Shown: positions 17,632-32,000 of the stretch, one piece after another
Layout of the letters: the number at the start of each line of letters is the position of its first letter
Numbering within the stretch: the stretch's first letter is position 1
From: Chitinimonas arctica
Lineage (GTDB): Bacteria; Pseudomonadota; Gammaproteobacteria; Burkholderiales; Chitinimonadaceae
Length of the DNA stretch: 32,000 bases
Reading direction: 5' to 3'
Assembly: GCF_007431345.1 (NCBI RefSeq)
Contig: NZ_CP041730.1
Span: 163,651 to 195,650, forward strand
Translations under genes and position numbers: made by a program
The notes under the pieces: generated by a model
Seen by the model: the letters and a program-made list of their open reading frames with translations, nothing else
Told to the model about the DNA's origin: nothing
Databases searched by the model: none

Positions 17632-18693
17632 CTAATCGCGAGCCACTGCTGCACTTTCTTTTGCTATCCGGTCGAGATTTTTCTGCGCGTCAGCGTGCCC
17701 TTGAGCAGCAGATTTTCGGTACAGGTCGAGTGCTTGCCGATCATCCCGAGTCAACCCTAGGCCGTGTTCGTACAGATGACCGAGTTTGTTCTGCGCAAAA
17801 GCATCCCCTTGTGCTGCGGCCTTGCGATACCAGGCAGCGGCTTGGGCATAATCTTGCTGCACCCCACGGCCAGCCTCATACAATGTCGCCATGCTCGCTT
17901 CCGCAGTGGCCAGCCTCTGTTCGGCACTTTTTCGATACCACATCATCGCTTGCGCGTAGTCCTGCGGCACACCATGGCCCTGTTCGAACATATCCCCAAC
18001 ATTGCACTGGGCAGCGGGATGTCCTTGATCCGCAGCCTTGCGATACCAGGCCATTGCTTGTGCATGATCCCGCGGCACATCGGAGCCTTTCATATAGATC
18101 ATGCCGAGATTGAACTGAGCGCGGGAGAAACCCTTCTCGGCGGCCTTTCGAAGCCAGAAAAACGCTTGCGGAAAATCTCGCGACACGCTTTTGCCATCTA
18201 AAAAGAGCACGCCCAACGCGTTCTGAGCAACTGGCAGCCCCTGTTTGGCTGCCCTTCGGTACCAGGCGATAGCCTGTTCATCATCCTGCGGCACGCCGAG
18301 CCCCTGCTGGTACATCCATCCGAGGTTGGTCTGAGCAGTCGCACGCCCCTGCTCAGCGGCTTTGCCGCACCAGCTCAGTGCCTGCTAATTATCTTGCGGC
18401 ACGCCAAGGCCACCAAGGTACAGCGTACAAAGATTGGTCTGCGCATCCGCATTGCCCTGCTGCGCGCTCTTGCGATACCAAGCCAAAGCTTGCAGGTGGT
18501 CCTGCGCAACTTCCTGACCTAGCTGATACATTGCGCCCAGCTTGTTTTGGGCGGCGGCATGGCCGCTTTCCGCCAACGCACGCACCCCATCGAGTGTCGC
18601 CTGCTGAAGGTCCGTTTTATGTCCATTCAATCCCGCCCAGGCCATACCGGACAATCCCACTGCCATGGTAAGCAGCCAAATACGTACTTTCAT
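17632..18693 (-). pseudogene. Sel1-like repeat (SLR) protein interrupted by one in-frame TAG (18385-18387)
   Basis: Track ORFs 18385..18693 and 17632..18315 are in the same frame. Translating across the gap gives ...GGLGVPQDN*QALSWCGKAAEQGRATAQTNLGWMYQQGLGVPQDDEQAIAWYRRAA..., a continuous series of about eight 36-aa Sel1 repeats (consensus AQxxLGxxYxxGxGVxQDxxQAxxWYRKAAxQG). The N-terminal signal peptide is MKVRIWLLTMAVGLSGMAWA. Confidence 0.8.
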
Positions 18694-18727
18694 TTCAATT
18701 CCCTTTGCTTACTGCGCATCAGCGATT

Positions 18728-18849
18728 TTAGCTGGGCCCCACCACCCCCGCCCTGATCTCGAATTCAACCGTCTCCAAACGCTCGCGCAGCACCGTCTGC
18801 TGGTGGCTGAGATGCACCCGGTTCACACGGCCTGTCGCGCCAGCGCATC
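18728..18849 (-). pseudogene. Relic of the 3' end of a pilN-like gene (diverged copy of 19616-19723)
   Basis: The - strand reads DALARQAV, then a 1-nt deletion, then NRVHLSHQQTVLRERLETVEFEIRAGVVGPS*. The intact gene reads DALAGQAVLSRVHLSHQQTVLRERLETVEFEVRAGV.... There is no upstream coding continuation. Confidence 0.6.
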
Positions 18850-18896
18850 AAGGTGGCCCGTCTCGTCGCACCCCAATTTTTGAGTAAATTCAACTT

Positions 18897-19502
18897 TCAG
18901 GGAAGATCTAAGTTGCTCTTAGCATTGTTCCACGATGCTTTTTGTTGGACAAAAAATCCCACATTTAATAGGGCGGTCTTCTCGATAGCTTTCAAATCCT
19001 CTTGCTGCTGAGTAAGCTCTCTTTGCATAAGGGGATGTACTAATATTTTATTATCCAACAGAAGGTCACTGGGGGCCAGCCCCTCTATTTCTTGTATATA
19101 TAAATCCACGGAATCAGTTGCATAGGTCGCAGCTTGTACAATTCTGCCCACATTATTTTCACGTAAATGATCCAAAAGACTGCACACTGAAAAACACGCA
19201 TCTTGTGCCGATGACACATATAGAGAAGCAAAGTCATCTGAACTGGGTGCCGCCAGCTCACAAGCTTGGGTCGCATTTTTTATTTCCTGGACGCTCACCG
19301 ATTCACCGGAAAGAAACTTCCAAACAATGTCCAAGGCCTTTCGCAAGGAAGAAAAATCTCCCCAGTCCGTATCTTGCTGGAAGGCAATATAATTCGGCAC
19401 TAGCCTTTCACAGCAAAAAGCACCAAATGCCAGTTGACGATTGCCATCAAGCTTAGTTAGGCGCGCCTTTAAGGTCGCGCCATCAAATGCAGGCATAACC
19501 AT
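18897..19502 (-). CDS. DUF416 (YjaG-like) family protein
   Basis: 201-aa ORF. The blocks FGAFCCERLVPNYIAF, ALDIVWKFL and APSSDDFASLYVSSAQDAC mirror the conserved blocks I recall from E. coli YjaG (CLCERMYPNY, ILDLIWETL, IPSADDF...AIDAC). The gene is markedly AT-rich; a hand count of 19081-19140 gives 24/60 GC. Confidence 0.7.
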   Translation of the reverse strand: MVMPAFDGATLKARLTKLDGNRQLAFGAFCCERLVPNYIAFQQDTDWGDFSSLRKALDIVWKFLSGESVSVQEIKNATQACELAAPSSDDFASLYVSSAQDACFSVCSLLDHLRENNVGRIVQAATYATDSVDLYIQEIEGLAPSDLLLDNKILVHPLMQRELTQQQEDLKAIEKTALLNVGFFVQQKASWNNAKSNLDLP

Positions 19503-19586
19503 TTCTTTATTATTCCTTCAATGGACTTAGTACATTGATGCCCTGTTGTTGCAAAGTGCTTGCACACCGCATTGGTGAATCCGCGT

Positions 19587-20132
19587 TCACACGCCTGATG
19601 AAGGATTCTGGCCTGTCACCCCCGCCCTGACCTCAAATTCGACTGTCTCCAAACGCTCGCGCAGCACTGTCTGCTGGTGGCTGAGATGCACCCGGCTCAA
19701 TACAGCCTGCCCCGCCAGCGCATCCAGATAAGCCTCCAGGGCGCGGCGATCGCGCGCCTCGCCGCGCAGGATCAGTTGGCGGCTGGTCTTGTCGGGTTGG
19801 AATTCGAGTAACTCCACATCGGCTTTGCCTGCCCGTTCGATGGCCAGGAAGACCTCCGGCCACGGGTATTCGCGCTCGGCCTGCAGTGCCGCCCATTGTT
19901 TTTGCGTACGTTGCAATGCCTTGTCGTCCACCGGCTTGGCAGCGCGGCGCTGCTGGACTTGCAGCCTTTCGCTCCGGGCGGCGAGCTGTTCGGTGCGCGC
20001 AGCGGTTTGATAGGCGTCCTGCGCCAGCCAGGCCGCGCCGATCAGCAGCACGGCGACCAGCAGCCACAGCCAGCCGGCATGGCGCAGCGGCGGACGAAGA
20101 TAAGGGCTAAGCGGGTCCATATTCATTGCCAT
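19587..20132 (-). CDS. PilN/GspM-like bitopic assembly protein
   Basis: 181-aa ORF with a single TM (WLWLLVAVLLIGAAWLA), then a coiled-coil, then a ferredoxin-like periplasmic region (VELLEFQPDKTSRQLILRGEARDRRALEAYLDAL). It overlaps the upstream gene stop (ATGGCAATGA). Its position after the GspE and PilM-like genes fits this role. Confidence 0.6.
   Translation of the reverse strand: MAMNMDPLSPYLRPPLRHAGWLWLLVAVLLIGAAWLAQDAYQTAARTEQLAARSERLQVQQRRAAKPVDDKALQRTQKQWAALQAEREYPWPEVFLAIERAGKADVELLEFQPDKTSRQLILRGEARDRRALEAYLDALAGQAVLSRVHLSHQQTVLRERLETVEFEVRAGVTGQNPSSGV
19616..19723 (-). repeat. Copy B of a ~107-nt direct repeat (copy A = 18743-18849)
   Basis: I aligned the two copies by eye. There are long identical runs (e.g. 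GTCTCCAAACGCTCGCGCAGCAC and GTCTGCTGGTGGCTGAGATGCACCCGG), scattered substitutions and one 1-nt indel. Confidence 0.8.
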
Positions 20133-20893
20133 TCGCTGGGGGTAAGGGCTTGCACCACTGCGCCGGGCAGGTTGGCGACGATCTGTTCGGCACGGCTGCT
20201 CGCGTCATCGGTTGCGGCCGACCAGGCGGCGACCTGTTCGATCGCACCGTGCAGGGCAGCCAAACGGCGTAGCAGGCGGGTAGTGGCGGCTTGCGCGTCG
20301 CCGGCTGCGGGTTCCACGTCATAGCCGATCAGGCCGGCGTGGTCGTACAGCAAGGCGGTGCTGCGGCTGGCATCGCCCAGTAGCAGCAGGCGCTTGCCTT
20401 CTCCCGGTGCGCAAGCCGCGCGGTGGTAGATGGCGGCGGACAGTGGCAAGACAGTGCGCAGGCGCAGACCGTGCGCCTGGCACAAGGCCGGCAGTTCGGT
20501 CAGGCAGCCGCGCCGCAACGCATACGCCAGACCCAGCCGACCATGATGACGGAAATCGCTGTGTTGCACCCACTCCCGATCCAGCGGCTGGCCTTGCTGT
20601 TCAAAGCAGGCTTGCGCATAGGCTTCGACCTCGGCCGGCGTCTGTAGCGCCGGCTGCCAGGCGAGCGGCGCCAGGGCCGCCAGGCTGTCCGAGACAGTCA
20701 GCACCAAGCGGCTGCCCGGCCGCCATTGCCCGGTGTGTTCGGTCAACAGCGCGATTAGTTCAGCCAGCAGATCAAGCGGTGCGGGGCTCGGTGCATATTC
20801 GCTCCAGCGCGGCGCGGCGGACCGGCCAAGCTGCAGGCCGCGCCGGCCCGGAAACAGACTGGCGTAGACGGTACTAGGCCACAAAGGTGACAC
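20123..20893 (-). CDS. Putative PilM / GspL-cytoplasmic-domain-like assembly protein (weak call)
   Basis: The frame is continuous with coding-like composition. GTG 20893 (or TTG 20884) overlaps the gspE end. No TM segment is present. Loose PilM/GspL-like blocks are present (RLVLTVSDSLAAL, GLRLRTVLPLSAAIY, KRLLLLGDASRSTALLYDHAGL). The gene sits between GspE and the PilN-like gene. The track start at 21013 lies inside gspE and was rejected. Confidence 0.45.
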   Translation of the reverse strand: MSPLWPSTVYASLFPGRRGLQLGRSAAPRWSEYAPSPAPLDLLAELIALLTEHTGQWRPGSRLVLTVSDSLAALAPLAWQPALQTPAEVEAYAQACFEQQGQPLDREWVQHSDFRHHGRLGLAYALRRGCLTELPALCQAHGLRLRTVLPLSAAIYHRAACAPGEGKRLLLLGDASRSTALLYDHAGLIGYDVEPAAGDAQAATTRLLRRLAALHGAIEQVAAWSAATDDASSRAEQIVANLPGAVVQALTPSEWQ

Positions 20894-22541
20894 GATTGAC
20901 CTCCTGCAATGTGGTCTGGCCGTCGCGCACCCCTTGCAGGGCGACCTCGCGCAACAAGCGGGTGCCTTCGCGGCGGGCCTGCTCCTTGAGGGTGCGCAGC
21001 GAGGCGCGGTCAATGATCATTTCGCGCAGCTCGTCGCTGAGGCACATGACTTCGGCCACTGCCCGGCGGCCTTTATAGCCGCTGCCGCGGCATTGCGGGC
21101 AACCGCGGCCGGCACGGAAGCGGTAGTTCTCCGGATCGGGGATGCCGGAGTCGGCTAATAAGGCGGCATCGAGCTGCTGGTCGGTCACGCAGTGCGGGCA
21201 GTTCTGCCGCACCAGCCGCTGCGCCACCACGCCCGTCAGGGCCGAGACCAGGTGATACGGGTCCACGCCCATATGCATAAAGCGGCCGATAACGTCGAAA
21301 CTGTTGTTGGCATGCACCGAGGTAAACACCAAATGGCCGGTCAGCGCCGACTGCACCGCGATCTGGGCGGTTTCCGCATCGCGGATCTCGCCGACCAGGA
21401 TCTTGTCCGGATCATGCCGCAGGATGGAACGCAGGCCAACGGCAAAGCTGAGGCCCTTCTTTTCGTTGACCGGAATCTGCAGCACGCCGGGCAGCTGGTA
21501 TTCGACCGGATCTTCGATGGTAATGAACTTATCTTCGCCCTGGTTGATCTCGGTCAAGGCCGCATACAGGGTAGTGGTCTTACCGCTGCCGGTCGGACCG
21601 GTGGCCAGCAGCATGCCGTAGGGCGCGGCCGCCAGCCGGCGCAGCACGCGCACGGTATCGGCATCGAATCCCAGCGAATCCAGCGTCAGGCGCTGCACCT
21701 GGTCGATCAGGGCTTGCTTGTCCAAAATCCGCAGCACGGCATCTTCGCCGTGGATGCTGGGCATGATGGAGACGCGGATATCGATATCGCGGCCCTTGGC
21801 GGCAATGCGGAAGCGGCCGTCCTGCGGGATGCGCTTTTCGGCGATATCGAGTTCGGCCAGCACCTTGATACGGGCGATGGCCTGTTCGGCCAGCGCGGTT
21901 TTGTTGACGGTGGCGATGCGGTTCAGCACGCCGTCGATACGGAACTTGATCACCAGGCCTTGCGGGATCGATTCGAGGTGGATATCGCTGGCTTCGCAGC
22001 GCAAGGCATCGAACACGGTCGAGTTGATCAAGCGCACGGCCGGACTGGCCTCGCCCTGGATCGATGCCAGGGTCAGGTCGGCGCTGGCATCGCGCGCCAG
22101 TTCGATGGATTGGTCCAGGCCGACCGCATCGGCCACGGCGCTGAAACCGGCCTCGTGCCGTTCCAGCTCGGCGCGCAGCAGGGCGGGGTCGGCCAGGTAA
22201 AGCGCCGTCAGCGGCAAGGCTTGAGCGGCCAGCCACGGGCCCAGCCGGCTATCCAGCGGCTGGCCGATCGCGGCGCAGAGCCGGCCGGCGGCGTCGTGCC
22301 CCACCAGCAGCACTCTTTCGGCCATGTCGGTGTAGGCCACTTGCGCGAAGTCCGGCTGGAGCGGCCAGCCGGTGGCGCAGTCTAGCGGCGGGTAGGCCAG
22401 CAGGGTGGCGGCCTCGGCCAGCAACGCCTCGCGCGATTGCGGGGAACGCTCGGCCAGCCAGCTCAGCCAGTCGCCGCCGAGGCCGGCGGCTTGGCAGGCC
22501 TGCGTCAGCTCGGCCAGGGTCAGGGGGGCATCAAAGTGCAT
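20874..22541 (-). CDS. gspE: GspE/PilB-family secretion ATPase
   Basis: 555-aa ORF with Walker A (ATGPTGSGKTTT), Asp box and Walker B (KILVGEIRD), His box (TGHLVFTSVHAN), and the tetracysteine CPHC...CPQC motif. Confidence 0.95.
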   Translation of the reverse strand: MHFDAPLTLAELTQACQAAGLGGDWLSWLAERSPQSREALLAEAATLLAYPPLDCATGWPLQPDFAQVAYTDMAERVLLVGHDAAGRLCAAIGQPLDSRLGPWLAAQALPLTALYLADPALLRAELERHEAGFSAVADAVGLDQSIELARDASADLTLASIQGEASPAVRLINSTVFDALRCEASDIHLESIPQGLVIKFRIDGVLNRIATVNKTALAEQAIARIKVLAELDIAEKRIPQDGRFRIAAKGRDIDIRVSIMPSIHGEDAVLRILDKQALIDQVQRLTLDSLGFDADTVRVLRRLAAAPYGMLLATGPTGSGKTTTLYAALTEINQGEDKFITIEDPVEYQLPGVLQIPVNEKKGLSFAVGLRSILRHDPDKILVGEIRDAETAQIAVQSALTGHLVFTSVHANNSFDVIGRFMHMGVDPYHLVSALTGVVAQRLVRQNCPHCVTDQQLDAALLADSGIPDPENYRFRAGRGCPQCRGSGYKGRRAVAEVMCLSDELREMIIDRASLRTLKEQARREGTRLLREVALQGVRDGQTTLQEVNRVTFVA

Positions 22542-23712
22542 TGGCCATCTCGAAAATCGGGGTATACAGCATCAATACAATGGCGCCGATGACCAGGCCG
22601 ATGCCGACCATCAGCACCGGTTCGATCAGCCGGCCAGCCACATCGAGCCAGGCAGCCACTTCCTGGTCGTAGAAATCGGCGATCCGTTCCAGCATCTCGT
22701 CCAGCTGGCCGGACGATTCGCCGGCCAACAGCAAGCGGTCGGCCACTTCGGTACTGAGGCCTTGCTCCGCCATCACCCGCGACAAAGGGTGCCCCTCGCT
22801 GACCGCCCTGCCCGCTTGCTGCAAGCGCGCCTGCATGGCCAAGGGCAAGGCGGCCTCGCTCATCCTCATGGCAGCGAGGACGCTGACGCCGCTGCGCAGC
22901 AGCATCCCCAGGGTGCGGTAAAGGCGGGCCAATTGCAGGGTCCAGACCTTGTCCCCCAGCCAGGGCGTGCGCAACACGCGGCGGAACACGCCGGCGCGGA
23001 CAGCCGGTTGCAGCGCCACGAGCAAGCCGCCCAGGGGCAGCGCCAGGCACAGCCCCCAGGCCAGCCAGGGATACCCGTTGACCAGGCTGCCCCAAGCCTG
23101 CACCAGGCGCGACATATCCGTCTGCCTGGGCACATCCTCGAATACCGCGCTGAAACGCGGCACCACATACAGCAACAAAAAGGTCACCACCAGATAGCCG
23201 ACCCCGACCAGGATCGCCGGATAGACGGCGGCCGCCAGCAGTTGGCCGCGAATGGCATCGACCTGGCGCTGGTAGTGCATAAAGCGCTGGATGGCGGCGC
23301 GCACGCTGCCGGTGGTTTCGCTGGCGCGCAGCATGGCCAGGTAAAGCGCCGGAAAGACCGAGGGCAAGGCCGCCATCGCTTCCGACAGCTGTTTGCCGTG
23401 CCGTAGGCCTTGCAACAGGCTGTCGTAGACGGCCCGGTGCCGCCCGGTCCGGTCGTTGCGGCCAAGGATCTCGATCGCATCGACGATAGGCTGGCCGGCT
23501 TCCAGCAAGGCGTGCAATTGCTGGTTGAACACCAGCAGCTTGAAGGCCGCGGCGCCCTTGAGACGCGGCAGGCCGTGCCGGACCGGTCGCAGCGTCAGCA
23601 ATCGACCGCCGCTTGCTGCCAGCACGCGACGCGCTTCTGCTTCATCGGCGGCTTCCAGCTCAACCTGCCTCACTTGGGCGTCGGCTTGTAGCACCTTGGC
23701 GCGGTAGCGCAT
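22531..23712 (-). CDS. gspF: GspF/PilC-family platform protein
   Basis: ~393 aa with two T2SS-F repeats and hydrophobic segments (AAAVYPAILVGVGYLVVTFLLLYVVP; LIEPVLMVGIGLVIGAIVLMLYTPIF). ATG at 23712 is preferred; TTG at 23715 is the alternative. The 3' end overlaps the gspE start. Confidence 0.9.
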   Translation of the reverse strand: MRYRAKVLQADAQVRQVELEAADEAEARRVLAASGGRLLTLRPVRHGLPRLKGAAAFKLLVFNQQLHALLEAGQPIVDAIEILGRNDRTGRHRAVYDSLLQGLRHGKQLSEAMAALPSVFPALYLAMLRASETTGSVRAAIQRFMHYQRQVDAIRGQLLAAAVYPAILVGVGYLVVTFLLLYVVPRFSAVFEDVPRQTDMSRLVQAWGSLVNGYPWLAWGLCLALPLGGLLVALQPAVRAGVFRRVLRTPWLGDKVWTLQLARLYRTLGMLLRSGVSVLAAMRMSEAALPLAMQARLQQAGRAVSEGHPLSRVMAEQGLSTEVADRLLLAGESSGQLDEMLERIADFYDQEVAAWLDVAGRLIEPVLMVGIGLVIGAIVLMLYTPIFEMANAL

Positions 23713-23936
23713 CAATTAATCTCGCAGCTTGCCACAAAGGCATTGAATGCGTACGTGTAGTCCGCCGAGGAAAGCAGCAGATGTTCTGGGATAGTCATGC
23801 TGCATTTTATGGAATAGATCATTGCCGCACTAAGGACACTTGCCCCTATCGAGCCGAGCCGAGATGTTCCGTGACAAGTCATCCTCGCAGAGTGCAGCCG
23901 CAATCCTATTGGGGTAAATTCGCTTCATTCCCCAAG

Positions 23937-24488
23937 CTATTCGCCCAGAGGCGAACAGTCCTCCGGTGGATCCGCCCATTCGCCCAACGGATCTTTGGGC
24001 GGAAGCGGTTGCGCGCGGGCAGCACAGATGTACCCGCCTTTGGGGAGGGGAATCAGTTCCAGAAATTCGTTTTCGCATACCGTCGAAATGCTCACCCCCC
24101 ACTCGGCCTTACCCGGCTCCGGCATTTCGTCCATGCAACCTTTCGAAGTTGCTGTAATAGTTTCGATTACGATACACCCTTGTAGGCCTGTGACCTTATC
24201 TGCGGGGGTCACGCGCGTAGCGTAAGTGCTGAGAAAGGCTGCTCCAGTCATGTTCAATGCATTGCACTCTCCAACGCGCGGCGTACTTTCCGTTCTGCTG
24301 GGAATGGACAAACCCCCACAGGCTGCCCCCACGGTACTTCCCCGCGAGGTATAGACGCCGCTGACGACCGTGTCGATTCTAGCCTCATACACGGGTGTTT
24401 CAAGAGAGGCCGATTGACTAACAATCGATGAAGTTACCAGCGCGAATATGCTAAAGCGGCGCCAGCCGCTTTTAAAATAGTTACGCAT
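23937..24488 (-). CDS. Hypothetical secreted protein (signal peptide, several Cys)
   Basis: ATG 24488 lies 2 nt after the upstream TGA (24491-24493). The N-terminus MRNYFKSGWRRFSIFALVTSSIVSQSAS is signal-peptide-like. ~183 aa; no recognisable family. Confidence 0.55.
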   Translation of the reverse strand: MRNYFKSGWRRFSIFALVTSSIVSQSASLETPVYEARIDTVVSGVYTSRGSTVGAACGGLSIPSRTESTPRVGECNALNMTGAAFLSTYATRVTPADKVTGLQGCIVIETITATSKGCMDEMPEPGKAEWGVSISTVCENEFLELIPLPKGGYICAARAQPLPPKDPLGEWADPPEDCSPLGE

Positions 24489-24490
24489 TT

Positions 24491-24892
24491 TCAAGGCCTT
24501 ACTTCCTGAGCTTGTTTTGTTTTACTAATAAGCAGATCTATTCTTGCACGCAAATATTTTCCGAGAAAATAAGCCGTCACTCCGACGAGCAGCATGGCCG
24601 GTGTCACACCATGTGTAATCATTTCACTCAGCGAGGAAAGATGGCTAAAGAAATAGTTCACATTCATCATCATTAAAACGAAAATGTTCCATACCACTTC
24701 CATCAAGAATAAGACAATGACGGCCTCGGGCCACTTCACCCGTCCAGAAACTCCCATCAAGCTCATCGGAATGGCCACAGCCAAAGTCATGCTAAGCGTG
24801 CCATGCTCCAAGCAGGCAAGGACCATCGTCTCGCAGATCTTATAGCTAAGTAGCAGCACAAAAAGACGAAACACCAGCTTAATGATTTTCAT
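24491..24892 (-). CDS. Small polytopic membrane protein (~4 TM), candidate Rhs-tip immunity protein
   Basis: ATG 24892 is preceded by AAAGGA. The 133-aa protein MKIIKLVFRLFVLLLSYKI...LSMTLAVAIPMSLMGV...AVIVLFLMEVVWNIFVLMMM...AMLLVGVTAYFLG is very AT-rich. It begins 36 nt after the Rhs stop. The longer track start (24949) overlaps the Rhs gene. Confidence 0.6.
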   Translation of the reverse strand: MKIIKLVFRLFVLLLSYKICETMVLACLEHGTLSMTLAVAIPMSLMGVSGRVKWPEAVIVLFLMEVVWNIFVLMMMNVNYFFSHLSSLSEMITHGVTPAMLLVGVTAYFLGKYLRARIDLLISKTKQAQEVRP

Positions 24893-24927
24893 GCAATTTC
24901 CTTTAGAAATCCCCAAGTACTGCCGAT

Positions 24928-27900
24928 CTAAAAACTTTTCGTCATGCACTTGTTGTAGTTAGTCTCGCACGTCGTCATGGCATCCGTATCCACGGAACCA
25001 TCTGGTGCGTTTGCCTTTCCATAACAGGCTGTTCTATCCTGATGACAGCAGAGTGTCGGAGTACGCGCGCAGGCACCCCTTACATTAACCTTGCATTGCT
25101 GTTGAAGCTTCCCATTTAGCCATGCCCAGCCACAATAATCGCGTTTGCATTCTTGATAGCGCGGGGCATCATCACCCGGGTCATAAGGTTTTTTCGGCTC
25201 CCTCGGTAAATCAAAATGCGCACCCGGCTCCATGGATTTACATCCAATACCACCACGCGTGCATTGAATTTCCAGACCAAACGGATCGACAAACAACAGC
25301 GGGTTTGCACCGACATAAAGGTAAGTGTTGCTCCCTCCAGCCAAGCCAATCGGATCGGACTGGATATAGCGTCCAGAAGCCGGATCATAGTCCCGGAAGT
25401 AGTTATAGTGCAGACCGCTTTCGACGTCATAGTACTGCCCGTCGAAGCGGAGGTTGTAGACAAACTTACTGCCAGTCTTCGCGGGGTCTTGGTTGGGTTG
25501 AACCGTGCCGAATCCGTCACTATCCCAACGCCACACGACCTTGTTGGCGGTATCTGTTACCACCCGTGGCGAGCCAAGCTCATCCGGCTGCACATAAAAG
25601 ACGGTTACACCTGCGCCATTCGGTCGCAGCGTTGCAACCGGCAGGTTCTCCAGCCAAACCGTTTCTTGTACCAACTTGCCCGCCGCATCATATTCGCCCA
25701 ATAGATGACCTTGCAGATCGTAGACAAACAGACCGCCGGTTTTGCTAAACCGCTGACCTAGGCCGTTGTATTGATAGTTGGTCGTAACGCTGCCCTTCTT
25801 GACGGACACCATGCGTCCGCGGCTGTCGTAAGTGAAGGTGCGTGTCGCATCCTTCACGATGCTGCCGGCAGCATCGACGCTGATCGGAGAGACGACGCCG
25901 GTAGCGACGTTGGTGATGGCATTCAGCTTGTTGCCGCTGTAGTCATAGGTGTTACCGCTGCTACCGCTCTCGTCCGGCGCCCAGCTCAGTCGATTGCTAT
26001 TGCCATCGTACGCATAAGTGAAGTTACGCCCCGCATTGCTTTTTTCCCAGACCAAGCGGTCCAATTCATCGTACGCGAATGTTTGGTTGCGCTTGCCATC
26101 GAGCACATCAACAATGCCGGTTAGATTACCGACGGCATCGCGTTCCAGTTTGCGCGTCAAGGCGCCCTCGGAGCTGATATTGACCAATTGTCCAGCCAAA
26201 TCGAACAAACGCTGATGGCGCTTTCCATTGGCCCAAGACCAAGCCATCGGTATTTTACTCAGGGGCAGCCAACTGAGATCACTGATGATGGCAGTGCCAT
26301 TCACGCTCACACCATTTGGCTGGCTTTGATTCGAAGCATAATTGAAGCCAATGACTTGACCGGAGGGGGTAGTGAGACTGTTTAGCCTACCCGCCGCATC
26401 CCGATTATAACGGGTAGTTAGATTAATACTCCCTACCGTTTGCGTCAGCAAATTGATTTGCCCAAGCCCATCGTAGCCAAAACCAACCGTGGCGCCACCA
26501 CCGACAATGCTGCTTAGCGCACCAATACGCGCCGAGTCGTAAGTATAATTTATGAGGGGACCACCAGCGTAACTGATGCTCGCCACACGTCCGATCACAT
26601 CGTAGGTGTAAGTGCTGACTTTACCACGGGCATCGGTCCGAGTTTTGATCAAACCGTTTGGTAGGTAAGTATATTGCTCAATACCCGTATCGGGACTTTG
26701 TCTTTTTAGCGTCTGGCCCAGGCCATTGACCGTATAATTTGTGCTCTGCCCATCTGGCGTAATGACGCTGGCTATCTGGCCAAGAACGTTATAGCCAGAG
26801 AGGATGGAATTCCCATCGGGACGTGTCGAACTAATTAGTGAATTCAATCCATCATAAGCGTATGTATTGCTTCGACCAAGCGCATCGACCTGATCAATGA
26901 GATTACCGTTGGCATCATAGCTGAAGCGGGTGACCTTCCCCAGTCCATTGCTGATTGAGTCGAGCTTTCCCGTCAATGGATCGTAAGTGAAGATTTGTTT
27001 CGTGACGACGCCCAAAGCATTAGTTCGACTTTCGGTCAATGGCCGACCTGCGTTATCCAAGGTGTAGGCGATACGCCCTCCGGTGGCATCTTGGATAGTA
27101 GTTAGTCGATCTGCGCTGTCATAAGTAAAGCTAGCGCTTCCGCCATTTGGCCGCGAAACCGAAGCCAATTGTCCATGTAACGTGTATGTGTAAGTCGTGC
27201 GGCTACCATTGGTGGTCAGCTCAATGAGACGACCAAGGTCGTCGTAAACATAGCTCGTCACCTCGCCGGTGGGGGCCGTGATACGGAGAGGACGGCCATG
27301 CGCATCGTTCTCGTTAATCGTCCAGGTATGATCCAGGGCATTAGCAACGCTAATCAACGCACCGCTGTTGTCATAGCTGTAACGCGTCTTGCCGGTGCGG
27401 GGGTCGGTGACGCTCGTCACCCGACCGGCCGCATCGTGGGTATAGGTCCACGTCTGGCTTTGTCCACCCGCAGTCATCGTTTTCGTCAGCGAATTGCCTT
27501 GACCGTCATAGGTATACGTCACTTTGTTGAGTGGCGTGTTCAGTTCCAGCAATTTGCTCTGCGTACTGTCGGTCCGTTCGGTGCTCACCAAACCGTTTGG
27601 ATAGGTCGTGGTAACCAGCGTGCCGGTACTGTCATATTTGCGGCTGGTGGTATTGCCATTGAAATCCGCGTAAGTATTCGGCCGGCCGATATTGTCGTAC
27701 CCGATGGTCCGCGCGGATCCATCGCTTCGCGCAATGGTTGTCGGTTGTAGCGCGCCCTTTTTTGCGAAGGTGAAGCTGCGCGCAACCCCGCGTGCATCGG
27801 TCAAGACACGGCTGCCGTCACCGCTATCCACCAACGTGGTCGTACCAAGTCCATCGGGGCCGCTGACCGTACTGACCAACTTAGCCGGGGTATAGCTAAT

Positions 27901-28842
27901 CTTTTCAATCAGCGCCCCAGCTGCGTCGTCAACCTGAGTTAGCAGCTGCGGTGCACCTTCATGATGATACTGATATCGCTCGCCGCTCCCCGCCGGACCG
28001 TAAACGGCGGCCAAGTTGCCTATCGTATCGTAGCTATAATTGAGTACATAGCCGCCAGGTCCAGCGATCTGGCGCAGCGCCCCATTGGCTTGGTAATAAA
28101 ACGAAAGTACCCGCCCGCCCATCGACGTGACCGTAGCGAGATTGCCGGCCGGATCATAATCGAGGTTGGCGCTCCAGCCGTTCGCCTGGGTAAAGGCGCT
28201 CAACTTATACACGTTGCCGGGTCCCGTCGGCTTGAATGTCTGCACCCTGCCATCGCGCCACGTCACTGTATAAGCCGCACAATTGCTGACCACTTGATTA
28301 ATCGCCGTCAAGTTTTCAGGATTGGGGGCTGGGGTAGAATCGCTGTTGGTCTCGGTCGGCGCGATGCACTCGACCGACGCCTTGCGATCACTCATGACTC
28401 TCCACGGGCCGGTGGCAGTATCGCTGCTAAGCATCAATTGCTCGCCCTGCGCCCCAAAGATCACGGCTCGGCCCGGCCAATTGAAGGTCCGCGTTTCGTA
28501 ATAAGTGGTCGGCTGGCCGTCCGACTCCCGAATCTTGTAGAACGGCCCATAGGTATGCGTAAAACGCGTATATGGTCGGATCAGGAACAACTGCTCGGTG
28601 AGGAATGGCAAAGTCCAGCCGGGATTCCCCAATGCACCAGCGGGTACCTGGAAGGCGGCGTGTGCATTTGCACTACTATAAGTTCTAACCAAGGAAAGCT
28701 CGGGTTCGGCTACATTCTCGTAATCGACGACGGAATGACTGTAGCTCGCGTTGGCGGGATGAATGGCCGCAAAAGTGGAGACTGGCAACGCGGCAACGGC
28801 AAATACTTTCGCCACAGCGAAAGCAGGAAAATTCAACTTCAC
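24928..28842 (-). CDS. Rhs / YD-repeat toxin with N-terminal Sec signal peptide and a variable C-terminal tip
   Basis: GTG 28842 follows AGGAAG. The signal peptide is MKLNFPAFAVAKVFAVAALPVSTFAAIHPANA. There are dozens of YD-type repeats (e.g. YTYDxxGRxxS, YxYDxxGNL). The Rhs core end is FDGQYYDVESGLHYNYFRDYDPASGRYIQSDPIGLAGGSNTYLYVGANPLLFVDPFGL, followed by a 114-aa tip. No PAAR or VgrG-like region was seen. Confidence 0.9.
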   Translation of the reverse strand: MKLNFPAFAVAKVFAVAALPVSTFAAIHPANASYSHSVVDYENVAEPELSLVRTYSSANAHAAFQVPAGALGNPGWTLPFLTEQLFLIRPYTRFTHTYGPFYKIRESDGQPTTYYETRTFNWPGRAVIFGAQGEQLMLSSDTATGPWRVMSDRKASVECIAPTETNSDSTPAPNPENLTAINQVVSNCAAYTVTWRDGRVQTFKPTGPGNVYKLSAFTQANGWSANLDYDPAGNLATVTSMGGRVLSFYYQANGALRQIAGPGGYVLNYSYDTIGNLAAVYGPAGSGERYQYHHEGAPQLLTQVDDAAGALIEKISYTPAKLVSTVSGPDGLGTTTLVDSGDGSRVLTDARGVARSFTFAKKGALQPTTIARSDGSARTIGYDNIGRPNTYADFNGNTTSRKYDSTGTLVTTTYPNGLVSTERTDSTQSKLLELNTPLNKVTYTYDGQGNSLTKTMTAGGQSQTWTYTHDAAGRVTSVTDPRTGKTRYSYDNSGALISVANALDHTWTINENDAHGRPLRITAPTGEVTSYVYDDLGRLIELTTNGSRTTYTYTLHGQLASVSRPNGGSASFTYDSADRLTTIQDATGGRIAYTLDNAGRPLTESRTNALGVVTKQIFTYDPLTGKLDSISNGLGKVTRFSYDANGNLIDQVDALGRSNTYAYDGLNSLISSTRPDGNSILSGYNVLGQIASVITPDGQSTNYTVNGLGQTLKRQSPDTGIEQYTYLPNGLIKTRTDARGKVSTYTYDVIGRVASISYAGGPLINYTYDSARIGALSSIVGGGATVGFGYDGLGQINLLTQTVGSINLTTRYNRDAAGRLNSLTTPSGQVIGFNYASNQSQPNGVSVNGTAIISDLSWLPLSKIPMAWSWANGKRHQRLFDLAGQLVNISSEGALTRKLERDAVGNLTGIVDVLDGKRNQTFAYDELDRLVWEKSNAGRNFTYAYDGNSNRLSWAPDESGSSGNTYDYSGNKLNAITNVATGVVSPISVDAAGSIVKDATRTFTYDSRGRMVSVKKGSVTTNYQYNGLGQRFSKTGGLFVYDLQGHLLGEYDAAGKLVQETVWLENLPVATLRPNGAGVTVFYVQPDELGSPRVVTDTANKVVWRWDSDGFGTVQPNQDPAKTGSKFVYNLRFDGQYYDVESGLHYNYFRDYDPASGRYIQSDPIGLAGGSNTYLYVGANPLLFVDPFGLEIQCTRGGIGCKSMEPGAHFDLPREPKKPYDPGDDAPRYQECKRDYCGWAWLNGKLQQQCKVNVRGACARTPTLCCHQDRTACYGKANAPDGSVDTDAMTTCETNYNKCMTKSF

Positions 28843-29376
28843 TATTTCTTCCTTGGAATATTTCGAACACGCCAGTACCGCATTACAAAGATTGCAATGT
28901 ATTAGCTAGTAAAGACATCTAACGCTTTACCGAAAAACAACCCCATCCGCTCATTGCCCATAAACGAGCGCAACAAGGTACCTGGCTGGGCACACGCACC
29001 AACCAGAGAGCAATCGAAAAAGGGAACAGCCGACTCGCCTACCCAGAGCGGCCGGTACTTTACCATAAAACAAAAAATATGCAAGTATTTCAATACCTTG
29101 CAAGCGAGCAACAGGCATTGAAATCTCTTGAAAAGTCGCCTACACAAGGCCTCTGCCGGGTTTGGGGTCCAGTAAAAAGCGAGGCCTGCAACACGCTTGA
29201 TCCAGGAGGGGGAGGGATGAATGTCCTATGCGACGCGCTCAACTTGGGGGTTAGGAATTTCCCTGGCCCATGCCGCTGGGCCCCTCCCTCGCTGACACAT
29301 GCCCACAAGTACCAGCAGGACAAATAAGCGGATTTTTAAAATTGCAGAGATAAATAAGCCACTTTGAATTGTCTTG

Positions 29377-29421
29377 AAAAAACATCCCCTGCGTTGACAA
29401 GGCTAGCGCTCGCCTCAACGC
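29377..29421 (-). terminator. Possible terminator after the gspG-like gene
   Basis: On the - strand, GCGTTGA pairs with TCAACGC (29391-29397 / 29415-29421 on +). A TTTTTT run (29377-29382 on +) follows 8 nt later. The geometry is not canonical. Confidence 0.3.
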
Positions 29422-29454
29422 ATATAGACGAACCCAGACGTCCCAACGCTTTAT

Positions 29455-29886
29455 TCACTTAGCCTCGACGCTGTCCCAATTGGTCACATCGGCATCGTCG
29501 CCGCTACCGCCAGGCTTACCATCCTTGCCATAAGCGACAATATCGGCATCGCGCCCTTGGTCGCCGGGCGACTTGTAGACATAGGCATGACCCCAGGGGT
29601 CGGCCGGTACGCGCTTCTTCAGGTACGGACCGCGCCAGTTGCCTTCATTGGCTGGTGCCGCCACCAGCGCAGCCAGGCCTTGCGCGGTGGTCGGGTAGCT
29701 GCCGACATCGACCCGGTATTGGTCGAGCGCCTTGTCGAAACCGTCGATTTGCGCACGGGCGACCTGGGTTTGCGATTTGCCGATCTGCGAGAAGTACTTG
29801 GGACCGACGAAACCGGCCAGCAGGCCGATGATCAGCAGGACGACCAGCAGTTCAAGTAAGGTAAAACCAGCGTGTTTGGCTCTCAT
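29455..29886 (-). CDS. gspG: Major pseudopilin GspG-like
   Basis: ATG 29886 forms an ATGA overlap with the upstream gene. The prepilin leader and cleavage motif are MRAKHAG|FTLLELLVVLLIIGLLA with Glu+5. GspG-like blocks are QIDGFDKALDQYRVDVGSYPT, GNWRGPYL and DPWGHAYVYKSPG. The track start at 29952 was rejected. Confidence 0.9.
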   Translation of the reverse strand: MRAKHAGFTLLELLVVLLIIGLLAGFVGPKYFSQIGKSQTQVARAQIDGFDKALDQYRVDVGSYPTTAQGLAALVAAPANEGNWRGPYLKKRVPADPWGHAYVYKSPGDQGRDADIVAYGKDGKPGGSGDDADVTNWDSVEAK

Positions 29887-30377
29887 TTTCGGCTTTTTTC
29901 CGGTTCGGTCGGGGCATCCGGCCCCGTATCGGGTTGATAGATAAACTGCCAATCTCGGTAGTGCTTGGCGCCCTTGAAACTTGCCAGCTCAGTTGGAAAG
30001 CCATCGATCTTCTGCGGCGCCTGCATGGAGAGGGAGTACACCCCCATGATGCCGCCACTGGGGGCCGGTACCAGGCCCCACTCCTGCGTGGCGCGGATCG
30101 GGTCACGGTACAAGCGGCGCAATGGCCGCTGCGGCCGAAGTGGGCGCTGGTCCAACAACAATACGTCCAGCGTGGGCGGATAGCGCACGCTGCCGCTGCC
30201 ATTGCGGTAATAGGCACGGATAGCAGCTTGGTAGGCCTGGCCGACATAGAGCAGCTCGGCTTCACGTTCACGCAGCTCGGCCGTACGGCTATTCTCCAGC
30301 GCGCGCGTGGTCAGCACCGCCAGGATGGCGACCAGGAACAACGCAACCAAGTAGCTGAAGCCCTGCTGGCGCCGCAT
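29883..30377 (-). CDS. Minor pseudopilin-like protein lacking Glu+5
   Basis: ATG 30377 forms a TGATG overlap. MRRQQG|FSYLVALFLVAILAVL has the prepilin-type G|F motif, but Val sits at +5. In classical T2SS that is the hallmark of the GspK-type tip subunit, although this protein is only ~164 aa. Confidence 0.65.
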   Translation of the reverse strand: MRRQQGFSYLVALFLVAILAVLTTRALENSRTAELREREAELLYVGQAYQAAIRAYYRNGSGSVRYPPTLDVLLLDQRPLRPQRPLRRLYRDPIRATQEWGLVPAPSGGIMGVYSLSMQAPQKIDGFPTELASFKGAKHYRDWQFIYQPDTGPDAPTEPEKSRK

Positions 30378-30748
30378 CACCAGTCCTTGAACCAGCTTTT
30401 GTCACGTGCTTGGCCGGGCGCCGCACTGCGAACGTCGGCGATAGCGCCGGTACCGCTCTCGGTCGGTGCAATCGGCAGCCAGCTCTCCTTGCTCTGCGTC
30501 AGCGGGTCGATCGGGATGCGGCGCAGGTATTTATGGTCGACCAAGTCTTGCAGCGTTTCAGGGTATTTGCCCTTGTCGGCGTAAAACTTATCGATGGCAT
30601 CGCGCAGCAGGTACAGATCCTCGCGCAGCACATCCTCCTTGGCCCGGTCCAGATTGCCGAAATAGCGTGGCGCGGCCAGCGACAGCAGCGTGGCGATGAT
30701 GGCCAAGGTGACCAGCAATTCGATCAGGGTAAAGCCCTTGGTGCGCAT
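30377..30748 (-). CDS. GspG-like pseudopilin paralogue
   Basis: ATG 30748 lies 2 nt after the upstream TAA. MRTKG|FTLIELLVTLAIIATLLSLAAP has Glu+5. A GspG-like LRDAIDKFYADKGKYPETL block is present. Confidence 0.75.
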   Translation of the reverse strand: MRTKGFTLIELLVTLAIIATLLSLAAPRYFGNLDRAKEDVLREDLYLLRDAIDKFYADKGKYPETLQDLVDHKYLRRIPIDPLTQSKESWLPIAPTESGTGAIADVRSAAPGQARDKSWFKDW

Positions 30749-30750
30749 GC

Positions 30751-31251
30751 TTACCACTCCCTGTAGGCCACGCCGTTCAGGCCGGTCTGCGTGGAGAGCG
30801 AGTAGACGTCGAACACATCGTCGCCGGCCAACGGCTGGTCCGGCGGCGAGTCGAATCGGCGCATGCCCCAGGTCTGTTCGGCGGGCGTACTGGCGGTCGG
30901 ATAGAAGGGATCGCGCGGCAGGCGGCGCAGGAAATACAGCCGCGCGCCGCCCGGCGCCTTGGCATTCGGCACCCCGGCTGCCAAGGCGACGAGCGTGGGT
31001 GGATAGCCATTCTGGCTGCCGGAGGCATCTACCGGGACAATGCGCCCATCAGCCGTGGCGGCTTTATAGGCATCGATTGCCTGACGGATATCCCGCAGCG
31101 CGCGGCGCAGCTCGTGTTCCTTGTGCCGCTTGAGCGTGGTCTGCGCTAAAGGCATGGCCATGGCCGCCAGCGTGGCGATAATGGCCAGCGTGGCCAGCAG
31201 CTCGATAAAGCTGAAACCGCCCGCACGGCTGGAAGAAAGTCGGCGCGGCAT
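30751..31251 (-). CDS. GspG-like pseudopilin paralogue
   Basis: ATG 31251 lies 2 nt after the upstream TGA. MPRRLSSSRAGG|FSFIELLATLAIIATLAAMA has Glu+5. An LRDIRQAIDAYKAA block is present. Confidence 0.7.
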   Translation of the reverse strand: MPRRLSSSRAGGFSFIELLATLAIIATLAAMAMPLAQTTLKRHKEHELRRALRDIRQAIDAYKAATADGRIVPVDASGSQNGYPPTLVALAAGVPNAKAPGGARLYFLRRLPRDPFYPTASTPAEQTWGMRRFDSPPDQPLAGDDVFDVYSLSTQTGLNGVAYREW

Positions 31252-31253
31252 GA

Positions 31254-32000
<747 letters not shown>

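Follow-up and report, generated by a model that had tools for sequence, protein, structure and literature searches.

A recombination scar at the 3' end of a PilN-like gene in Chitinimonas arctica encloses a candidate orphan immunity gene of the DUF416 family

Genes at the end of the operon

We have analysed 32,000 nucleotides of Chitinimonas arctica DNA (contig NZ_CP041730.1, positions 163,651 to 195,650; the whole stretch is referred to as the window, and positions are counted from its first letter), which carries an operon resembling a type II secretion system (T2SS). The subject is the end of that operon, where an intact gene of the DUF416 family lies between two diverged copies of the 3' end of a PilN-like gene. 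On the minus strand, the genes follow each other in the order three pseudopilin-like genes, gspG (29455-29952), an Rhs cassette, gspF (22531-23715), gspE (20874-22541), a gene for a protein of 296 aa, the PilN-like gene (19587-20132), the DUF416 gene, a Sel1-repeat gene and a protease gene. The features that make up the scar are given below in the direction of transcription; A and B denote the two copies of the repeat, and P2 and P3 two paralogous units elsewhere in the genome.

19587-20132, minus strand: PilN/GspM-like gene, 181 aa, last structural gene of the T2SS-like operon (gspG, gspF, gspE, 296-aa gene, pilN-like)
19617-19727, minus strand: copy B, the 3' part of the conserved core in the intact PilN-like gene
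19587-19616, minus strand: new tail of the working PilN-like gene, nine codons and a stop, encoded by insert DNA
19507-19566, minus strand: apparent toxin-gene remnant, 18 terminal codons (...CASTLQQQGINVLSPLKE; 19513-19566) and two stop codons, 4 nt before the DUF416 ATG
18897-19502, minus strand: DUF416 (PF04222) gene, intact, 201 aa, 44% GC, Pfam score 95.7 bits
18853-18896, minus strand: 3' flank of the insert, 44 nt; homology to P2 and P3 stops here (junction J2, 18852/18853)
18743-18852, minus strand: copy A, a displaced relic with the final 110 nt of conserved PilN-like coding sequence
18719-18742, minus strand: original PilN-like tail after the relic, with TCA changed to TAA at 18728-18730 and the ancestral TGA at 18719-18721

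The PilN-like protein of the window scored 21.5 bits against PF05137 (PilN), just below the cut-off of 22.8, and its orthologue in another Chitinimonas genome (G007) scored 28 bits, above the cut-off. The order gspG-gspF-gspE-(296 aa)-pilN-like is kept in five other loci, and other Chitinimonas species, as well as one metagenome-assembled genome of the Oxalobacteraceae, preserve the order gspG-gspF-gspE-(~270 aa)-pilN-like. The DUF416 protein far exceeded the Pfam cut-off of 23.7 bits, aligned with profile positions 3-177 of 188, and matched the PDB entry 2Q9R at E=1.4e-12. Its gene is the sole copy in the genome, and the best relatives in a large protein database are 67% identical.

Comparison with two paralogous units

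A segmental triplication has given the genome three paralogous units of ~25-30 kb, one of which includes the T2SS-like operon of the window:

17642-32000 of the window and beyond, genome 181292-210889: window unit
Genome 990249-1014303: P2 unit
Genome 1430380-1450399: P3 unit

The segments 17642-18852 and 19617-23715 of the window have counterparts of 94-96% identity in P2 and P3, where they adjoin each other directly. Both units have a single repeat and no DUF416 gene, and their PilN-like gene (179 aa) stops 25 nt before one 345-aa Sel1 gene. Since the paralogues are thus uninterrupted at this site, positions 18853-19616 are an insertion flanked by a 110-nt duplication of the PilN-like 3' end. 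The insert measures 764 bp and has 44.8% GC, as compared with 60.8% for the genome. A transfer breakpoint had been proposed at 18850 in a preliminary description of the locus, close to the true junction J2 at 18852/18853.

The other junction, J1, lies at 19616/19617, exactly the point where the conserved core (...EFE[IV][KR]A) ends in six other loci. P2, P3 and the relic all keep the PilN-like tail and stop that follow the core, and the working gene of the window has others in their place; in the related loci from other Chitinimonas species and the Oxalobacteraceae, PilN stops 1-4 codons past ...EFEI[KR]A. New and old tails have the pattern G..PSS in common, and this resemblance beyond J1, with 11 of 24 nt identical, was treated as chance. 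No terminal inverted repeats were found at the insert, and neither Pfam nor inspection of its open reading frames (ORFs) gave a transposase or integrase gene within it. Promoter-like sites were likewise not found, and the terminator-like matches were on the wrong strand or within genes.

Identity between the units is mosaic, with 0 to 10 differences per 100 bp. Between P2 and P3, one stretch of 600 bp is free of differences and others have 10 per 100 bp, and several 100-bp bins without differences occur between the window and P2. This mosaic pattern makes repeated gene conversion among the three units evident. Each copy of the unit also holds an ORF of ~2900 aa with RHS repeats, and extra Sel1-like genes.

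Two diverged copies of the PilN-like 3' end

In a pairwise alignment, copies A and B exhibited 89.2% identity over 111 columns, with 11 substitutions and one 1-nt deletion in A, between 18825 and 18826. The substitutions were distributed 2/1/8 over the three codon positions of the PilN-like frame (binomial P=0.009 for at least 8 of 11 in third positions). When searched across the whole 5.29-Mb genome, the match had an E value of ~1e-33 to 1e-34, and a chance repeat was rejected. Exactly four copies are present in the genome, namely A, B, one in P2 and one in P3, and all of them are 3' ends of pilN-like genes. A dispersed intergenic element similar to repetitive extragenic palindromic sequences was rejected for that reason, and a target-site duplication by a transposon or insertion sequence because there are no terminal inverted repeats and no recombinase gene, and because the duplication is 110 nt long and 11% diverged. 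The preliminary description, which had noted a diverged repeat of the pilN-like 3' end around the DUF416 gene, with most substitutions in third positions, was right on both counts, and its coordinates were only a few bases off; the widespread intergenic repeat that it had named as a possible refutation is excluded by the four copies.

Copy A joins the Sel1 gene without a break, just as the single repeat does in P2 and P3. It carries the frameshift, a codon doublet at 18835/18837 and, in the tail that follows, a nonsense codon. The last of these had been described as the relic's own stop: a TAA is indeed present at 18728-18730, but the codon is TCA in both paralogues, and the original stop is the TGA at 18719-18721, 25 nt ahead of the Sel1 ATG at 18693.

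Resident and foreign copy

The differences between A and B were polarised with P2 and P3. Eight substitutions are unique to B, six of them synonymous and two nonsynonymous, and A is identical to P2/P3 at 8/8 of these sites. Unique to A are three substitutions (the nonsynonymous codon doublet and one synonymous change) in addition to the frameshift and the nonsense codon in the tail. Two further substitutions separate A and B together from P2/P3, one of which is derived according to outgroups (AGG, Arg, versus AAG). A has accordingly changed at 3 of 110 neutral sites, and B at 6 of 28 synonymous sites (P=0.0035). B also differs more from the paralogues than its immediate flanks do (10/111 versus 13/552 differences, P=0.002, in a comparison chosen post hoc).

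Copy A, by these comparisons, is the displaced resident 3' end, now a decaying relic. That A is a relic of a pilN-like 3' end had been noted before, and its connection with Sel1 as in the paralogues bears this out. It had also been argued that the relic diverged under purifying selection in another genome. The third-position bias is not evidence for this, because eight of the changes are unique to B and six of those are synonymous; the bias arose on the branch of the working gene. On the other hand, the earlier opinion that the repeat is not a local duplication which decayed in place is supported, since simple decay in place is unlikely in view of the rates above (P=0.0035), provided that the two copies were identical at the outset and free to evolve. 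A third-position bias between a relic and its intact twin is silent on which of them is foreign, and polarisation with paralogues reversed the assignment made previously.

The DUF416 gene and a toxin remnant

DUF416 homologues were found directly 3' of the same toxin domain, or of its remnant, in 10 of 10 contexts. The domain is complete in loci L018, L019, L038, L039, L040, L041, L054, L055 and L056, L017 has a 45-aa remnant, and G007 an orphan toxin ORF. Toxin domain and DUF416 gene are mostly 12 to ~20 bases apart, and at most ~50. The toxins of the homologous loci are of the Rhs/YD-shell class, and one of the DUF416 homologues is fused to an Imm10 domain. The 18 codons ahead of the DUF416 gene in the window have the same position and orientation as the toxin ends in the homologues, and a profile built from four intact toxin ends detected them at E=0.0025 when 24 frames were searched, a match that is weak alone (8 bits). 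An intact toxin domain was not found in the genome at E<=0.1, and the same search detects the domain in two other genomes, which served as positive control.

We read the insert as a foreign-looking orphan module, consisting of a putative toxin stub and its immunity gene. From the ten toxin-linked contexts, the stub and the lack of an intact toxin in the genome, we infer that DUF416 would be an orphan immunity protein of an Rhs-delivered toxin, probably kept for protection against neighbours with the cognate toxin. The DUF416/YjaG family (PF04222; structures 2Q9R and 3F7C) is annotated as of unknown function. The window protein matches both the family model and 2Q9R, and differs from the family annotation in its link to an Rhs toxin; the literature searched neither described DUF416/YjaG as an immunity protein nor connected it with an Rhs toxin domain. 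In the congener G008 (L046 4367-6804), a DUF416-like gene is situated near a gene of the Imm11 family, which fits an immunity gene array.

The toxin domain comprises ~100 aa at the C-terminus of Rhs proteins and has invariant HAE and PICxxC motifs 23 residues apart (L019 4656-4985 and homologues). It gave no match in Pfam at E<=10 or in two PDB sequence searches, and an AlphaFold model from an alignment of five sequences was unusable (pLDDT 40). The HAE...PCxxC motifs agree with what we take to be the signature of zinc deaminases (H[AC]E ... PCxxC), a lead only, and the domain may represent an unclassified deaminase-like family.

Corresponding sites in other Chitinimonas species

The site just after pilN was also inspected in two other Chitinimonas species (L045 2966-15679 in G007, and L034 5001-10507), where pilN and a giant protein are found together. 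In G007, pilN is followed by a 3253-aa Big_7/SpvB/FG-GAP protein with an RHS repeat, and then by an array comprising a gene for 255 aa, the HAE...PCxxC toxin domain as an orphan copy of 203 aa, and a DUF416-like gene with 45% GC. The pilN gene of C. prasina likewise precedes a giant Big_7/SpvB/FG-GAP protein. Given this order of pilN, giant protein and toxin/immunity genes, the position behind pilN is the boundary between machine genes and toxin/immunity cargo in Chitinimonas. Low GC is a property of the family of toxin-immunity modules. The DUF416 protein of the window and the DUF416-like protein of G007 are 33% identical.

On a metagenomic contig (L018 580-7379), genes for an Rhs protein, for a C-terminal piece of Rhs that includes this toxin domain, and for DUF416 are located directly upstream of gspG and gspF. 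The latter two are 60% and 42% identical to those of the window, and the arrangement is a further link of the toxin-immunity pair to this class of T2SS-like operon.

The Sel1 and protease genes

Downstream of the relic, three further features bear on the history of the locus:

18426-18852, minus strand: tract of low divergence from P2/P3, adjoining J2
17632-18693, minus strand: single Sel1-repeat gene, interrupted by a change of TCG to TAG at 18385-18387; a 345-aa gene in P2 and P3
15979-17298, minus strand: gene for a trypsin-fold, lipoprotein-like protease, 53% GC, just outside the left end of the paralogous unit

Two separate Sel1 genes were considered and rejected, since it is one gene that is split by the TAG, and a single 345-aa ORF is present in both paralogues. 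Relative to P2, 32 of the codon changes in the window Sel1 are nonsynonymous and 27 synonymous. This suggests that constraint on the gene has been relaxed downstream of the insertion. Its synonymous distance to P2/P3 (0.12-0.14) is the same as that of the operon genes (0.06-0.25), so that Sel1 is an original part of the unit and not foreign. Its lower GC is common to P2 and P3, whose Sel1 genes are ~94% identical to that of the window. The 427-bp tract at J2 is the most P2/P3-like part of the left-hand (Sel1) segment, with 10 differences from P2 as compared with 64 in the 780 bp of the rest of Sel1 (Fisher P=2.5e-5, for a breakpoint chosen post hoc).

The protease is present neither in P2 and P3 nor in the operons of relatives, and a full-length relative was not found in the nine other genomes of the genus that were searched, where only the C-terminal protease domain is matched (41-48%). 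The proposal that a homologous operon was followed directly by Sel1 was correct, albeit this arrangement is found in P2 and P3 of the same genome; the accompanying proposal that the protease belongs with this class of operon is not supported, as the protease has no counterpart in either paralogue and no full-length one in the congeners searched.

Origin of the scar

The recombination scar is real. The kind of process that it represents is known from elsewhere, and the end of a T2SS-like operon is a new place for it. In our preferred reading, to which we assign a probability of roughly 0.6, a 764-bp module of toxin stub and DUF416 gene entered the 3' end of the PilN-like gene by homology-facilitated illegitimate recombination, DUF416 being an orphan immunity gene. 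The ancestral window unit had the PilN-like gene, 25 nt and the Sel1 gene, the arrangement still found in P2/P3. Donor DNA from a related operon, with pilN followed by toxin and immunity cargo, would have paired with the resident pilN, and its non-homologous end would have been joined at 18852/18853, a point 110 nt upstream of where the homology ends. B would then be the donor allele and A the resident allele. The working gene retains its conserved core (B) and has gained a tail of nine residues from the insert, the old 3' end has been shifted downstream, and the Sel1 gene behind that old end has a nonsense codon. The fragment contiguous with Sel1 (A) lies downstream of the module, and the diverged anchor copy contiguous with the insert (B) lies upstream of it. 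A single event of illegitimate recombination would account for the insert and the duplication as well as for the new tail and the divergence between the copies, and the mechanism is favoured because it takes fewer events and fits the arrangement found throughout the genus.

Several observations weigh against this reading. B could simply be the native allele, since its divergence does not stand out from the rest of the window pilN (10/111 versus 21/405 differences, P=0.17) and in synonymous distance to P2/P3, too, B (0.25) does not significantly exceed the remainder of the gene (0.17-0.24). A plain relative-rate test on the 110 nt, with the small numbers of 8 versus 3 changes, gave P=0.13-0.23. 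The match to the toxin remnant is weak by itself at 8 bits, the immunity function of DUF416 is read from gene neighbourhood only, and the loss of the toxin body, whether in the donor or later, would add a step. No donor was found: a scan of genome contigs with the PilN-like alignment gave six loci, none with Sel1, DUF416 or the protease; a DUF416 scan of metagenome contigs gave a best match of 51% identity; no pilN allele with B-type variants turned up in any genome or metagenome searched, and the closest DUF416 is the one at 67%.

The insert may instead have been introduced by two illegitimate joints that duplicated the 110 nt in place, so that A and B were identical at first. Sequence from P2/P3 would later have replaced the relic and the 5' portion of Sel1, as far as J2, by gene conversion, and B would have retained the allele of the window type. 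The mosaic identity of the units makes it evident that conversion has taken place among them, the 427-bp tract of low divergence ends exactly at J2, the divergence of B is typical of the window pilN, and A and B have the derived AGG (Arg) in common where P2, P3 and the outgroups have AAG. Such a course would nevertheless need at least two separate events, and it would leave window-type sites at 18747 and 18753 unconverted within the tract. A duplication of 110 nt is moreover unusual, with no known mechanism or element behind it, and there are no terminal inverted repeats, transposase or integrase that could be invoked. We consider this explanation unlikely, though it, too, fits the data. A vertical remnant is quite improbable. 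In that case the ancestor of the three units would have had pilN followed by a toxin/immunity array, as in G007, P2 and P3 would have excised it through the A-B repeats, and the window would keep a decayed version. Congeners with a giant Rhs protein behind pilN, joined in G007 by a DUF416-like gene, speak for such an ancestor, 110-nt direct repeats would permit a clean excision, and the divergence between A and B (10%) is at least that between the window and P2/P3. An extra event would still be required, however, to place a second pilN end and Sel1 behind DUF416, the window DUF416 is only 33% identical to that of G007, and a neutral relic has changed too little for so old an event.

The preliminary description had held that relic, Sel1 and protease arrived together from a xenologous secretion operon, with 18850 as the transfer breakpoint and DUF416 bracketed by the pilN ends of donor and resident. 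The A-B differences are mainly in third positions, the region 15.9-19.6 kb is lower in GC than the operon, and the protease is unique to this genome among the genomes of the genus searched, all of which speaks for such a transfer. In contrast, Sel1 directly follows pilN in both paralogues and is included in the triplication, its low GC recurs in P2 and P3, its synonymous distance to them equals that of the operon, the relic is nearer to P2/P3 than B is, and the protease is not part of P2/P3 or of the operons of any relatives. We regard this origin as very improbable; the foreign piece is not the side of the relic and Sel1, but the DUF416 module.

Relation to known systems

In the T6SS (type VI secretion system) clusters of Vibrio cholerae, sequential displacement of effectors gives rise to arrays of orphan immunity genes, and homology-facilitated illegitimate recombination was put forward as the mechanism (Kirchberger et al. 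2017, PMC5361080). The scar described here resembles those arrays in that a conserved gene of a secretion cluster would act as homologous anchor, the module enters on its 3' side and shifts the older sequence downstream, and orphan immunity genes are left together with 3' effector-gene stubs. It differs in that the anchor is the PilN/GspM-like gene of a T2SS-like operon, that the displaced sequence is the structural gene's own end together with Sel1 and not an older effector, and that the module would have arrived already orphan, as a toxin stub with an immunity gene. Displacement of rhs C-terminal regions likewise leaves orphan rhs-CT/immunity modules (Jackson et al. 2009, PMC2935791; Poole et al. 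2011, PMC3150448). Common to both situations are a partial duplicate of conserved upstream sequence ahead of the displaced downstream piece, a module of low GC, and, in the loci homologous to ours, a toxin of the Rhs/YD-shell class. Here, however, the duplicated sequence belongs to a gene of the secretion machine, and no rhs core fragment is present at the site. The recombination process itself has been described in transformable bacteria (de Vries and Wackernagel 2002; Prudhomme et al. 2002; Meier and Wackernagel 2003, as cited in PMC5361080; see also PMC3240628), and the present case has the same one-sided homology anchor, the nearby non-homologous joint and the foreign DNA beside a diverged anchor copy, but unlike those studies it is deduced from a single genome.

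Displacement of toxin-immunity modules, known from rhs loci and T6SS clusters, would thus occur also at the end of a T2SS-like operon, and the locus adds to the evidence that the T2SS-like operons of Chitinimonas travel together with Rhs toxins. More novel, as a by-product, is that DUF416 is paired with an Rhs toxin domain which is unclassified: a concrete function, toxin immunity, can be proposed for members of a Pfam family of unknown function, together with a new toxin domain as partner. More tentatively, and with odds that we would place clearly below even, part of the DUF416/YjaG family could be the dedicated immunity partner of an unclassified deaminase-like (HAE...PCxxC) Rhs toxin domain, and the 3' boundary of the PilN-like gene a recombination anchor for swapping toxin/immunity cargo, as at T6SS clusters. 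If true, T2SS-like machines of this class would be dedicated exporters of Rhs toxins.

An Rhs cassette between gspG and gspF

The 5.7-kb Rhs cassette (window 23716-29454) is present only in the window unit, and lies exactly between the gspG stop and the gspF start. Nothing was found at this intergenic site in P3. The gene for 152 aa behind the Rhs gene of the window has a homologue, 50% identical, at the same place in P2 (genome 995451-995870), and this homologue may be another orphan immunity gene.

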